Shown: positions 60,530 through 64,000 of the stretch, one piece after another
Numbering within the stretch: the first letter of the stretch is position 1
How the letters are laid out: each line of letters opens with the position of its first letter
Assembly: GCA_039028615.1 (NCBI GenBank)
Contig: JBCCHT010000025.1
Coordinates: 64,001 to 128,000, forward strand
Length of the DNA stretch: 64,000 nt
From: Myxococcota bacterium
GTDB lineage: Bacteria; Myxococcota_A; Polyangia; Nannocystales; Nannocystaceae
Reading direction: 5' to 3'
Translations under genes and position numbers: made by a program
Notes under the pieces: model-generated
Told to the model about the DNA's origin: nothing
What the model saw: the letters and a program-made list of their open reading frames with translations, nothing else
The model's database searches: none

Positions 60530-62230
60530 TTACTCCGCCCTCACGTGTCGAAAGCTGTCGTGGGTGACGATGGCGGTGACCAGGGCGTGGTAGGAGCCCC
60601 CGGCCTCGGCCGCCGCGGTGGCGATCTGCTCGGACATGCACGCGTCGTCCAGACCGAGGGGTCGGCCCATCGCAAACTGCAGGGGCTTGCGGACGCCGAC
60701 GCACCAGTCGGCCTGCTCGTTCTCGGCGATCACGTGGGCGAACTCTTCGGTCGTCTCGAACGGAATGCCCTGCCCGGTCGCGGGATCGGTGAGCCACCCG
60801 TCTTGCTGCAGCGGGTTGCCCAGCTCGTCGTGGCTCTGCCAGCGACCGATGCCGTCGTAGGGCTCGAAGGCCCAGCCCATGGGGTCGAACTGGCCGTGGC
60901 AGGCATTGCAGGTGGCGTTCGCCAGGCGCTGCTCGGAGTAGTAGCGCGGCGACTGGCCCGGCTCGAGCTCCCCCATGCTGGTGTCGACCTCGGCCGGCGG
61001 CGCAGCGACGGAGGAACACAGCACACCACGCAGCACGAACAGCCCGCGCTCGACGATGGAGGGCCGGTTGCCGTGCCCGTTGATCGCCTGCACGCCCGCG
61101 TGGGTGAGCACGCCGAGGCGATGCGGCACCTCGGCCAGCGAGTAGCGCTGCCAGCCCTCCCCCGGGTTCTCGATGCCGTAAAGCGCAGCGAGCTGCGGGG
61201 TGGCCCAAGTGAAGTCGGCCGTGAGCAACGCGGTGATCGGCGCTCGCTCTTCCCACAGCAGCTCCTCGGCCACGCGCAGGGTCTCCTCGCGCATGTCGTT
61301 GGCCAGCGCGACGGAAAACTCGGGGTACTGCTCGGGGTCGCGGTTGATGGTGGGCAGCCCATCGAGCGCCAGCCAGTCGCCCACGTAGCGCAGCGCGGTC
61401 TCCTTGGCGCGCGGCTGTGCCAGCATGCGCTCGACCTGCGCCTGCAGCTGCTCGGTGGTGTGCAGCTGTCCCGCCGCGGCGGCCTCGAAGAGCGCGTCGT
61501 CGGGCGAGCTGCTCCACAACAGGTAGGACAGACGGGAGGCGACTTCGTAGTCGCTCAGCTCGCGGAGATCACCCGGCTGCCCGTCGGCGGGCAGCTCGTC
61601 TTCGAGGCGGTACAGAAACTGAGGCGCCTGCAGCAAGGCATGCAGCACCAACGCGGCCCCCGTGCCGAAGCCATCGCCTTCCTCCAGCGCCGCGGTGAAG
61701 TTGCGACGCAGGGACTCGACCTCGGGCTCGAGCAAGGGACGACGCCACACCAGGCGCCCGAGGCTGCCGATGAAGCCGCGCTCGCACTCGGCCGTGAACT
61801 CGGTGCACGCGGCATGGGCGTTGAGCACCGCCAACGGATCGGGCAGCTGCGCCACGATCAGCTCCGCGAGGTCGTGATAGGCCTCGATGTGATCGTAGGT
61901 GACCAGCAGACCGCTGACCTGATTCGAAAACCCTTCGGAGCGCAGGTCGGCGGGCAAGAGCGCTTCGGCGTCGGACGTGATGTCGACCCCGAACATGTCG
62001 TGCACCGTGTTGACGTACTCGACGGTGGTCAGCCGCCGCACGACCGACGCGCCCTGCTCGCTGGCGCAGGCCTGCGGGCCCCCGTCGTCAGTGCCGTCGT
62101 CGTCACCGCCGTCGTCATCGGCGGCCGTGGGGACGCCCTGGCCCGGGTCGCTCGCCGGGTCGACGCCCGAGTAGCAGCCCAGCGCCCCTGCGCCCGCCAA
62201 TCCCCAACCCGCGACGATCCACCGCCGCAT
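60530..62230 (-). CDS. DUF1587/1595/1592/1588/1585 lipoprotein with CxxCH
   Basis: ALGC lipobox; RRLTTVEYVNTVHD, ASRLSYLLWSSSPDDAL, CNACHGQFDPMG. Confidence 0.92.
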   Translation of the reverse strand: MRRWIVAGWGLAGAGALGCYSGVDPASDPGQGVPTAADDDGGDDDGTDDGGPQACASEQGASVVRRLTTVEYVNTVHDMFGVDITSDAEALLPADLRSEGFSNQVSGLLVTYDHIEAYHDLAELIVAQLPDPLAVLNAHAACTEFTAECERGFIGSLGRLVWRRPLLEPEVESLRRNFTAALEEGDGFGTGAALVLHALLQAPQFLYRLEDELPADGQPGDLRELSDYEVASRLSYLLWSSSPDDALFEAAAAGQLHTTEQLQAQVERMLAQPRAKETALRYVGDWLALDGLPTINRDPEQYPEFSVALANDMREETLRVAEELLWEERAPITALLTADFTWATPQLAALYGIENPGEGWQRYSLAEVPHRLGVLTHAGVQAINGHGNRPSIVERGLFVLRGVLCSSVAAPPAEVDTSMGELEPGQSPRYYSEQRLANATCNACHGQFDPMGWAFEPYDGIGRWQSHDELGNPLQQDGWLTDPATGQGIPFETTEEFAHVIAENEQADWCVGVRKPLQFAMGRPLGLDDACMSEQIATAAAEAGGSYHALVTAIVTHDSFRHVRAE

Positions 62231-62443
62231 TGCCACACATCTCACCCTATTACTTACATTGTAGGGAAATGAGGGTGGCGGCAACGTGGATTTGGGGAAA
62301 AATCGGCTCGTCGTCCGCCGTCGGGGTTGGCCAGACCACGCTTGCCACGCCCACCGACGATCGATCCCGCGAAACGAGCGAGATCGCTACGCCGCGGGTC
62401 GTGTCGCGTCGGCCGGCCGAAATCATCTCGGTGGCACGATGGG

Positions 62444-62482
62444 AAAAAAAGAGCCCCGTCGCTTGGGGAGGCGACGGGGCTC
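62444..62482 (-). terminator. Strong intrinsic terminator, minus strand
   Basis: Perfect 12-bp stem GAGCCCCGUCGC/GCGACGGGGCUC, loop CUCCCCAA, followed by U7. Confidence 0.85.
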
Positions 62483-62740
62483 GAACTCGGGACTCTTGTC
62501 TTTTGGGGGATGAGGGGTCGAGTCGCGAGGGCCAATGCTGGACAGCAGCGCTCTATTGGGGGGGGAGGAAGGAGAGTCTGCTGTCGTCGATAGGCCGGGG
62601 ATATAGGCCGCGGGACATTGAACCGCGGCGCGAGGTCCACTGAGCGATTGGTCTAGGTAGACCCGTAAAGGGTCTGACTCGGAGCGGAAGGATTGGGGGG
62701 GGAGGGTTTCCGCTGCGAGTGCCGCTCAGCGACAACGCAG
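62444..62740 (-). ncRNA. Candidate structured sRNA, unit 2, C-rich loops
   Basis: Downstream of repeated promoter-like motif; six hairpins, four with CCCC(C)AA loops; ends at U7 terminator; no convincing CDS. Confidence 0.6.
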
Positions 62741-62745
62741 CTACT

Positions 62746-62781
62746 TAGTGGGATTCGCTCACCAACCGATCACGAAAATCG
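62746..62781 (-). promoter_or_regulatory. Promoter-like motif CGATTTnCGTGATCGGTTG-N11-CCACTA, copy 2
   Basis: Direct repeat of 63103-63138 with 24 identical positions in three blocks. Confidence 0.65.
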
Positions 62782-62789
62782 GAGAAAAA

Positions 62790-63097
62790 AAGCGTGAGCA
62801 AAAAGGCGCCGATTCCGGTCGTAGGGCCCTCTCGACGGGCCCACAGGCCTGATTGGCCTGGAACCAAAAGGAAGACCCAGACCGCGTTGGGGGCTCGCGG
62901 GCTGGGTCGAGGAGGAACGGATTCCGACTGTTGAGCGCGCGTCGGAATCCGGACGGAAATTGGTGCTGCGTGGGGGCTCGCAGCGGGTGCATCGGCCACA
63001 CTGGTTGGGGGCGGCGAGAAGAAAAAACCGAGCGCGAACCCGGGGCCCAGGAAGAGGGCTCGACCGGGCTCGACGCCCAGTGCGGTGACGATGCGAC
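62790..63097 (-). ncRNA. Candidate structured sRNA, unit 1, C-rich loops
   Basis: Downstream of promoter-like copy 1; hairpins at about 63027-63086, 62965-62984, 62918-62951 and 62874-62908; GCCCCCA(A) motif three times; 3' end uncertain. Confidence 0.5.
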
Positions 63098-63102
63098 GGA
63101 GG

Positions 63103-63138
63103 TAGTGGAAACGGCCGATCAACCGATCACGGAAATCG
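63103..63138 (-). promoter_or_regulatory. Promoter-like motif CGATTTnCGTGATCGGTTG-N11-CCACTA, copy 1
   Basis: Direct repeat of 62746-62781, 357 bp apart. Confidence 0.65.
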
Positions 63139-63204
63139 ACATGAAATCCGATTTGAAGTGTTTTTCTTACCGAACGCGCGACAACGAGCGCCTCGAGCCA
63201 CCCA

Positions 63205-63960
63205 CTAGGGCCGCACGCCCTCGAAGATGACGTTGTCGGCCAGGGCCCGGCCCCGCGTCAGTCCGGACTCGTCTTTGATGGTCCAGGCCAATAGAGGGAT
63301 GCCGAGCCGACGCAGCAGCCTCGGCGCGGGCTCGCGCAGCGAGGCCAGCTCGTAGCCCACGTAGTGCGGCCGGACCCAGGGCGCGGCGAGCAAGTGCTGC
63401 ACGATGGGTTTTTCGTGGGGCTTCATCTCCCAGTCCCGCGTGCGGCCGGCCAGCATGCCGCGCGGCAGGTCGGGCGCATGCTGCCGCAGCCAGTGCAGCG
63501 AGCGGGGGTTGAACGACTGCACCACGTAGCGCCCCGGCCAGCGACGCAGCACGTCGAGCACCCCTTGCTCGAGCCGCCCGATGGGGGACTCCGCCTTCAG
63601 CTCCACCACCACCGGGACGCGATCGGCCACGCACTCGAGCACCTGGTCGAGCGAGGGCACACGCTCGTCGCAGCTCGCCAGCTGCAGGCAGGTCAGGTCG
63701 TCGAGCGTGCAATCGCGAACCGCTCCCGGGCGGCCCGTCATGCGCTCGAGGGTCTCGTCGTGGAACACGACCACGCCGTCGTCGCGCGTGCGGTGCACGT
63801 CGAGCTCGATGGGGTAGCCCGCGGCCGCGGCCGCATCGAAGGCGGCCAGCGAGTTTTCCGGCCGCAGCTCGTCGTGCAGGCCACGATGAGCCACCGGCCG
63901 CCGCAGCAGCCACCCTGGCGCGTCTCCGCCCCGAATCAACGATCGCACGCGCGCCATCAT
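63205..63960 (-). CDS. Glycerophosphodiester phosphodiesterase family protein
   Basis: VAHRGL, PENSLAAF, IELDVHRTRD, VFHD, VELK, QSF, AWT. Confidence 0.93.
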   Translation of the reverse strand: MMARVRSLIRGGDAPGWLLRRPVAHRGLHDELRPENSLAAFDAAAAAGYPIELDVHRTRDDGVVVFHDETLERMTGRPGAVRDCTLDDLTCLQLASCDERVPSLDQVLECVADRVPVVVELKAESPIGRLEQGVLDVLRRWPGRYVVQSFNPRSLHWLRQHAPDLPRGMLAGRTRDWEMKPHEKPIVQHLLAAPWVRPHYVGYELASLREPAPRLLRRLGIPLLAWTIKDESGLTRGRALADNVIFEGVRP

Positions 63961-64000
63961 GCGACGGCCCCCCCGACGGGACAATCGCCCGGATCACCGA

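Follow-up and report, generated by a model that had tools for sequence, protein, structure and literature searches.

A candidate tandem pair of minus-strand small RNA genes with repeated C-rich loops in a Nannocystaceae genome

The intergenic region and its two predicted RNA units

The DNA analyzed here (the window) is a 64,000-nt stretch from a Myxococcota bacterium of the family Nannocystaceae (GenBank assembly GCA_039028615.1, contig JBCCHT010000025.1, positions 64,001 to 128,000), which belongs to a 12.27-Mb assembly of 94 contigs that is 96.7% complete (genome G000). Two minus-strand genes of the window enclose a gap: a GDPD gene at 63205-63984 (259-aa frame, Pfam match at 1.1e-28) and a DUF1592/PSD-family gene at 60530-62284, which carries five Pfam domains and whose product has a single named relative, from a Nannocystaceae metagenome-assembled genome (32% identity). 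The longest open reading frame (ORF) over the GDPD gene, at 63167-63997 (276 aa), was rejected as an Arg/Ala-rich shadow frame with no match in Pfam. An earlier note on this DNA had seen no convincing gene between the two flanks and had proposed that a tandem pair of minus-strand small RNAs (sRNAs) of an undescribed family, bearing repeated C-rich loops, lies there. With the flanks placed by Pfam, the gap is real, and Rfam searches, conservation and covariation together lend computational support to the proposed pair. As read from the sequence, the intergenic region would comprise two minus-strand RNA genes, unit 1 (~63095-62862) and unit 2 (~62738-62444).

The seven C-run motifs listed earlier for the minus strand proved exact when read base by base: CUCCCCAA (62463-62470), UCCCCCAAAA (62501-62510), CCUUCCUCCCCCCCCAAU (62555-62572), ACCCUCCCCCCCCAAUCC (62690-62707), AGCCCCCAA (62887-62895), AGCCCCCA (62971-62978) and GCCCCCAA (63005-63012). 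The 14-mer CCUCCCCCCCCAAU, said to be duplicated, is present in both long loops. Over 695 nt, the RNA strand holds six copies of CCCCCA compared to 0.21 expected from the genome density (Poisson 1e-7) and five of CCCCCAA compared to 0.04 expected, while both motifs are absent from the opposite strand of the same 695 nt; genome-wide, 2 of 69,820 segments of 700 nt contain at least six CCCCCA. The runs are C5 to C9, in most cases with AA on their 3′ side, and are unpaired in predicted hairpin loops, with three or four C-run patches per unit in this genome. Six of the seven motifs fall in hairpin loops of the predicted fold. The seventh, at 63005-63012, had been reported to lack a clear stem, and the fold confirms it as an unpaired stretch between helices. 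Across 11 units there are 41 runs of C5 or longer, none of which has an unpaired probability below 0.86; their mean is 0.97, compared to 0.39 for other C. A hand count of predicted hairpins in five genomes gave 7-9 loops with a run of C4 or longer per tandem locus, on stems of unrelated sequence; the per-genome folds thus bear out the suggestion that conserved loops sit on divergent stems. Run length (C4-C9) and flanks differ among the predicted loops, and the C-runs are the most conserved feature outside the stems and are always predicted to be exposed.

Unit 2 (62444-62738, minus strand, ~295 nt) is predicted to fold into a 5′ domain delimited by a long-range stem, plus four additional hairpins and a terminator, and its length agrees with the species of about 300 nt that had been anticipated. 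Hairpin H1 (62683-62714), whose loop ACCCUCCCCCCCCAAUCC has an unpaired probability of 1.0, lies inside the long-range stem. H2 (62607-62629, stem GCCGCGG/CCGCGGC) has a loop, UUCAAUGUC, that is not C-rich, and is missing from the related genome G002. Both the fold and the unpaired probabilities place the loop CUUCCUCCCCCCCCAAUA (62554-62571) in H3 (62541-62585), and H4 (62486-62529) presents the loop GACCCCUCAUCCCCCAAAAGACAA (62496-62519) on a covarying stem in which 5 of 10 pairs are changed on both sides. The terminator scan identified the end of the unit at 62444-62482, where a 12-bp stem GAGCCCCGUCGC with loop CUCCCCAA is followed by U7. The perfect U7 terminator claimed for this end is therefore present (stem at 62451-62482, seven U at 62444-62450), and its stem is kept in 8/8 sequences, with compensatory changes in genome G003.

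Unit 1 (62862-63095, minus strand, ~234 nt) was delineated from the minimum free energy (MFE) fold, the hairpin list and alignments A5, A6 and A9; its 5′ end was taken ~7 nt past CACTAC, and its 3′ end was set at the tail UUCCUUUUGGUU. A long-range stem closes the predicted 5′ domain, which contains the unpaired GCCCCCAA (63005-63012, minus strand; unpaired probability of the C-run, 0.98). Other genomes have at the equivalent position a hairpin with a GCCCCCAAA loop. H2 (62965-62984, stem GCUGCG/CGCAGC, loop AGCCCCCA) is kept as GCCGCG[A(N)CCCCCAA]CGCGGC in 5/5 genomes (A5). The loop of H3 (62918-62951) starts with GACGCGCGC, a sequence that all four A6 genomes share without change and that is replaced by GAUGCGCGC in contig L109; its stem covaries, with 5/9 pairs changed on both sides in A6 and 5/10 in A9. 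Between H3 and the terminator hairpin lies a single-stranded, anti-Shine-Dalgarno-like CCUCCUC (62909-62915), invariant in the 5/5 unit 1 sequences aligned in A9, in a segment that is absent from G005. The terminator hairpin (62874-62908, loop AGCCCCCAA at 62887-62895) is followed in the fold by the tail UUCCUUUUGGUU (62862-62873). Orthologues of unit 1 are found in G001, G002, G004, G005 and contig L109; those of G001, G002 and G005 end with the same hairpin and a UUUGGUU-type tail, and that of G004 with the tail UCCUUUUCG.

Intrinsic terminators of the family (L069, L071, L073 and 62862-62873 of the window) often have a UUUGGUUCG-type tail instead of a pure U-run. In the family, EF-Tu and cold-shock-like genes have terminators with the same type of tail, which can be used for recognizing terminators in these genomes. 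A hairpin followed by T6 (63028-63043) in unit 1 is specific to G000, whose first hairpin loop has lost the GCCCCCAAA of the other genomes. The spacer between unit 1 and the motif upstream of unit 2 (62773-62861) carries further small hairpins (GGGCCCGUCGAGAGGGCCC) and the T-runs T5 and T7, which may serve as back-up terminators or provide that motif with an A/T-rich upstream element. Within unit 1 of G002 (L014 2025-2206), a two-hairpin module of 73 nt is present in 2.5 copies that are 99% identical, with loops alternating between AGCCUCCA and GAGCCCCCAA; the copies represent a recent amplification of loop modules, and some of the extra loops carry GCCUCCA.

Conservation, covariation and a shared promoter-like motif

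Unit 2 is present in all six genomes of the genus and the tandem pair in five of them. BLAST against 40 relatives recovered the region in 4 of the 5 other genomes of the genus and in none of 35 genomes outside it; the fifth, G003, carries unit 2 alone at a different locus. The five tandem loci share an identical layout (motif, unit 1, terminator, motif, unit 2, terminator). Among the five other genomes of the genus, the GDPD gene lies upstream only in G004 and the DUF1592 gene downstream only in G001, indicating that the sRNA pair is a module independent of its neighbors. A covariance model (R1) built on the 3′ domain of unit 2 scored the six genomes of the genus at 91-138 bits, and all other matches in 73 genomes of the order at 35 bits or less. 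Reading the DNA around five of these low-scoring matches identified each as an ordinary terminator, downstream of a tRNA, of EF-G-, EF-Tu- or cold-shock-like genes or of one further coding gene. When metagenomes were scanned for the terminator pattern, 108 stretches were returned, of which 80 were retrieved for analysis; 78 were generic terminators, and two were true homologues at 77 and 65.5 bits, one with a complete tandem pair and the other on a contig cut inside unit 1. The hairpin-module pattern GCGA(N)CCCCCAACGC was searched in 251 genomes of the class and occurred outside the genus at about the frequency of the reversed control; 7/7 inspected sites in two other genera looked coding-like by eye and had no promoter motif nearby. 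The family, as delimited by these sequence searches, has so far been found in one genus and on two metagenome contigs. BLAST of G000 against itself revealed no paralogue besides the locus.

A separate repeated element, GGGGTAGGCGTC..GTCAACAGGGCCCCC..CCCCCCATCGAAGCC, occurs in G000 at C18:~64000, C18:~165700, C23:~208500 and C78:~16350, where it leads into long intergenic tracts rich in C and poor in G; some of these tracts immediately precede genes of the same strand.

Covariation analysis in relatives, which the earlier note had called for, revealed a conserved region with compensatory stem changes and retained C-rich loops. The two halves of the region gave folding z-scores of −8.5 (0/200 shuffles as good) and −6.6 (0/100). 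In alignment A6 (H3 and terminator of unit 1, MAFFT), 92.6% of the cells were paired and 9/17 pairs were changed on both sides, with 0/500 shuffles as good; adding a fifth sequence to that region (A9) gave 82.4% paired, 8/17 pairs and 6/500. For unit 2, A3 (H4 and terminator) was 94.9% paired with 7/23 pairs changed on both sides (2/500), and A4 (outer stem and H2) 92.4% paired with 6/21 pairs (3/500). The A3 helices in eight sequences aligned by the covariance model (A10) were 95.6% paired with 7/23 pairs changed (0/500), in an alignment that leans towards the model. Slid-partner controls dropped to 25-60% paired in every alignment. The C-loop hairpins align poorly because their loops are low in complexity, and A5 (5′ domain of unit 1) and the inner hairpin H1 of A4 (unit 2) were left out of the counts, since poly-C loops misalign the 3′ strands. 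Covariation of this kind argues for selection at the RNA level. Gap runs were multiples of three in 6/37, 12/29 and 5/29 cases, and this lack of triplet bias in indel lengths indicates that the region is not coding. Each unit thus appears, by its sequence features, as a free-standing sRNA gene, having a promoter-like motif, a terminator and a conserved structure and being non-coding.

A motif of ~40 nt precedes each unit and consists of a T-rich stretch, (C/T)(G/A)TGATCGGTT, 13 nt and CACTA(A/C). Two exact pattern matches lie in the window on the minus strand: P1 (63098-63141; T-rich stretch, CGTGATCGGTT, 13 nt, CACTAC) upstream of unit 1 and P2 (62741-62784) upstream of unit 2. Their TGATCGGTT-N13-CACTA cores, at 63103-63129 and 62746-62772, score 49.9 and 45.4 bits, respectively, with a position weight matrix (PWM) built from 31 instances. 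The motif precedes both units in the five genomes that carry the tandem pair, and the pattern TGATCGRTT-N13-CACTA gave 3-5 sites per genome in the six genomes of the genus, compared to none for the reversed pattern in 73 genomes. Above a cut-off of 18 bits, the PWM detected four sites on both strands of the 12.27-Mb genome: two belong to the sRNA units, and the other two are arranged divergently on contig C3. The conserved RNA stems start 7-13 nt past CACTAA (A4, A5), so that CACTAA fits a −10 element, and GTGATC sits 17 nt upstream of it. Judged on sequence, this GTGATC-N17-CACTAA-like motif is neither of the canonical sigma-70 form nor of the sigma-54 form; it departs from the canonical form because TTGACA-N17-TATATT was found upstream of a tRNA in a member of the family. 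A sigma-70 consensus scan of the gap returned no site, and none of the 44 sigma-54-like matches of the window (at most two mismatches) fell within 62230-63204. Both metagenome homologues have a variant −10-like sequence, (C/G)ACTCA. With four high-scoring sites in 12.3 Mb, the motif defines a rare and directly testable mini-regulon and offers a handle on its regulator.

The divergent motif pair lies outside the window, at G000 C3:84906-85139 (locus L017 ~1496-1729). On one side, a 5′ untranslated region (UTR) of ~190 nt precedes the coding sequence of a 98-aa protein (MRLI..GTELVR) with conserved counterparts in G001, G003 and G005; on the other, a conserved leader with GCCCCCACC is followed by a small ORF in G000 and G001. 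For the two small proteins behind these sites, Pfam gave no match and ESM Atlas nothing usable. In a sister genus (g15), one motif site is present in 6/8 genomes (loci L029-L034, in genomes G041, G042, G019, G043, G045 and G047), where it stands upstream of a conserved RNA distinct from units 1 and 2, ~260 nt long and with a terminator at its end. This RNA has the C-rich stretches GUCCCCCCUU and CACCCCACCACCC and an invariant UCGCGAUGAACGCCG block (alignment A2), and Rfam assigned no family to loci L030, L031 and L033. In 4/7 genomes of genus g4 (L036-L039), a short hairpin and then a conserved protein gene (MSEMN...) lie downstream of a motif variant, TGATCGATTGATCC-N..-GCACTACC.

Mode of action and competing explanations

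The C-runs presented on stable GC-rich stems, the anti-Shine-Dalgarno-like CCUCCUC of unit 1, the extra GCCUCCA loops of G002 and the absence of Hfq and ProQ matches in the 96.7%-complete genome match documented C-rich-loop sRNAs and favor trans-acting base pairing. We therefore consider it somewhat better than an even bet (a probability of roughly 0.55) that the two units represent a new family of C-rich-loop, trans-acting base-pairing sRNAs, with putative transcription and putative targets. Units 1 and 2 are probably diverged tandem paralogues. In the proposed mechanism, each unit would be transcribed independently from the shared unusual promoter, starting a few bases past the motif, and would end at its own intrinsic terminator. 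The C-rich patches would then bind, by base pairing, mRNA stretches close to the start codon that are G-rich or resemble a Shine-Dalgarno sequence, thereby blocking translation or altering mRNA stability, probably without Hfq or ProQ, as for 6C and sX13 (see below).

Several results weigh against this proposal. Transcription of the two RNA genes is putative; among the public sequencing runs listed for the locus there was no RNA run, and the sole full match was a DNA run, from which the present sequence may itself derive. The weak hairpin and T6 at 63028-63043, within the 5′ domain of unit 1 of G000, could cause premature termination of some transcripts. Taken alone (A8, eight sequences), the outer stem of unit 2 had 4/13 pairs changed on both sides with 30/500 shuffles as good, which is weakly above shuffles. 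The covariation sets are small, with 4-8 related sequences each, so that their figures are supportive and do not amount to formal probabilities. Folding of both strands, suggested earlier as a check, upheld the structure itself and left the choice of the minus strand unsupported by MFE, since the opposite strand is at least as stable in 7/10 units; the G-rich strand may gain stability from extra G-U pairs, an assumption on our part. The excess of G-U over A-C cells in the helices is a count biased towards the strand used for deriving the structure. Target prediction, likewise suggested earlier, failed to give a signal above controls, whether by motif, by seed complementarity or by runs of G6 or longer, in scans based on our own crude calls of 8,598 genes. 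TTGGGGG occurred 14 times in −20..−6, which is about background and not an enrichment at ribosome-binding positions; GGGGG was enriched there ~1.3-fold, and GGAGG showed a clear peak at −15 to −9. Exact complements of eight single-stranded segments showed no excess over the antisense control in the 5′ windows of 8,146 genes, and runs of G6 or longer were found at −24..−3 in 54 of 8,598 genes compared to 57 and 43 in controls. A small regulon would be invisible to such global tests, and these negative scans thus neither support nor refute the mechanism.

The same negative target scans would also suit a sponge, whose loops would titrate a C-rich-RNA-binding factor or G-rich RNAs in the manner of CsrB/RsmZ, without direct regulation of mRNAs. 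The high and evolvable valency of the loops (7-9 loops of C4 or longer per locus, and the 73-nt module amplified 2.5-fold in G002) is in keeping with this idea, as is the recurrence of the loop core with its closing pairs, GCG-A(N)CCCCCAA-CGC, in the manner of a protein-binding site. However, no candidate binding protein is known; CsrA, the sole classic partner encoded (one copy in the genome), recognizes GGA, which was not seen in the C-rich loops of the supported strand read by eye, and the varying lengths (C4-C9) and flanks of the C-runs suit base pairing better than a fixed protein site. We regard a sponge as possible and rather improbable. Somewhat more doubtful is a version in which the RNAs would be multivalent decoys of a new specificity, with at least 7-9 poly-C loops per locus, under a dedicated sigma factor or activator whose regulon would consist of four promoters; that regulon, held to be just as doubtful, would comprise the two sRNAs and the divergent pair of small genes without a family. 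The lack of a target or partner in the scans and the differing number of hairpins among species could also point to another structured RNA (a ribozyme-free scaffold or a precursor of short hairpin RNAs) or to a DNA-level element in which the C-loops are incidental. This we consider unlikely, since no feature outside the stems is as well conserved as the C-runs, whose exposure is predicted in every case, and covariation points to selection on the RNA.

The remaining explanations concern the context, strand and coding status of the region. The GDPD gene, the RNA units and the DUF1592 gene share one strand, and the DUF1592 start lies only ~160-215 nt past the U7 terminator, as might suit a cis-acting leader of the DUF1592 gene or a 3′ UTR of the GDPD gene. 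The restriction of these flanks, among the five other genomes of the genus, to G004 and G001, respectively, the different context of unit 2 in G003, and the possession by each unit of its own promoter-like motif and terminator make this very unlikely. Also quite improbable, and slightly more so, is a plus-strand transcript acting as a CsrA sponge through G-rich, GGA-containing loops. The plus strand folds as well as or better than the minus strand in 7/10 units, GGA would be present in some of its loops (among them those complementary to the long C/U loops), and CsrA is encoded. On the other hand, both terminator-like sites found by the terminator scan are on the minus strand and none on the plus strand, the U-rich tail after the terminal hairpin exists only in the minus sense (8/8 sequences), and the motif stands upstream in the minus sense, in the same orientation as before the conserved protein gene on another contig. 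The helices contain 25 G-U cells compared to 5 A-C cells, and most plus-strand loops would read UUGGGGG and lack GGA. Hardly credible is the idea of small protein-coding genes: both strands do contain open frames of 60-177 codons, as is usual throughout DNA of 63-68% GC, but four ORFs of the gap submitted to Pfam gave no match, the gap runs are not triplet-sized, and conservation tracks helices rather than a reading frame.

Relation to known small RNAs

The earlier note had suspected an undescribed family, and this novelty withstood comparison with Rfam, in which nothing reached threshold: the best match was ar14, with 23.8 bits (E 0.096, 62447-62588, minus strand) compared to a gathering cut-off of 58.8. 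The sX13 model gave 15.4 bits (E 8) compared to a cut-off of 50, the 6C model was not among the eight Rfam matches at E ≤ 10 in 61500-64000, and the Rfam output for the window contained no Pxr-named family. Nine orthologous loci submitted to Rfam returned only a tRNA. By these sequence comparisons, there is no detectable homology to sX13, 6C or the cuckoo RNAs.

CsrB/RsmZ sponges present many GGA motifs in hairpin loops, which are bound by CsrA, in a copy number that varies among species. The units described here likewise repeat one short motif in hairpin loops; in contrast, their loops are C-rich, and no GGA was seen on the supported strand when the hairpin list was read by eye. In a limited search of the myxobacterial literature, Pxr was the only sRNA encountered, and no C-rich-loop RNA of this type was described. 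Pxr of Myxococcus and Cystobacter is described as an RNA of ~100 nt with three stem-loops and with tandem paralogues in some species, expressed from a sigma-54 promoter downstream of nla19 and restricted to the Cystobacterineae (PMC5568312). The present pair resembles it in its predicted multiple stem-loops and in probably consisting of tandem paralogues. That description nevertheless sets Pxr apart, since here there is no sigma-54 site (TGGCAC-N5-TTGC) and the promoter motif is a different one.

The closest parallels in mode of action would be with RNAs that expose C-runs. The account of sX13 of Xanthomonas (RF02232) presents a strongly structured RNA of 115 nt with three loops, encoded by a single gene, whose apical CCCC/CCCCC loops act without Hfq to repress mRNAs that carry G-rich motifs close to the start codon, in a G+C-rich host lacking a strong consensus ribosome-binding site (PMC3771888). 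The units share with it the structured RNA with C-run apical loops, here predicted, and differ in forming two tandem genes (~235 and ~295 nt) that each carry 3-4 C-run patches in this genome, with C-runs of up to 8-9. The 6C/B11 RNA of Actinobacteria (RF01066) is reported as a short RNA with two functional C-loops that bind G-rich single-stranded mRNA sites or ribosome-binding-site regions without a chaperone in high-GC bacteria (PMC6486639). Long C-runs in hairpin loops and the lack of an Hfq or ProQ match are points of likeness, whereas the phylum is different. The alphaproteobacterial cuckoo RNAs (ar14/CcsR/NfeR1, RF02344), as described, consist of 2-4 adjacent hairpins, each with CCUCCUCCC in its loop, and their source presents the pairing of C-rich loops with G-rich sites as proposed and not yet shown (PMC4615179). 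The arrays studied here are similarly modular, with a conserved C-rich loop, variable stems that covary through compensatory changes, and a variable number of modules. Unlike in the cuckoo RNAs, the loops read C5-9 followed by A, CCUCCUCCC is absent from them, and unit 1 has a single CCUCCUC, which lies in a linker.

Taken together, the sequence features point to a real and uncatalogued sRNA family, putatively expressed, of the known C-rich-loop kind, in organisms that are uncultured and marine. What is notable about it is the tandem pair, the high loop valency and the very specific shared promoter-like motif. It would add to the regulatory RNAs of myxobacteria a conserved, predicted sRNA pair that combines exposed C-runs, an anti-Shine-Dalgarno stretch and module amplification in a genome lacking Hfq and ProQ matches, and it would extend the type of sRNA represented by sX13, 6C and the cuckoo RNAs to another high-GC lineage.

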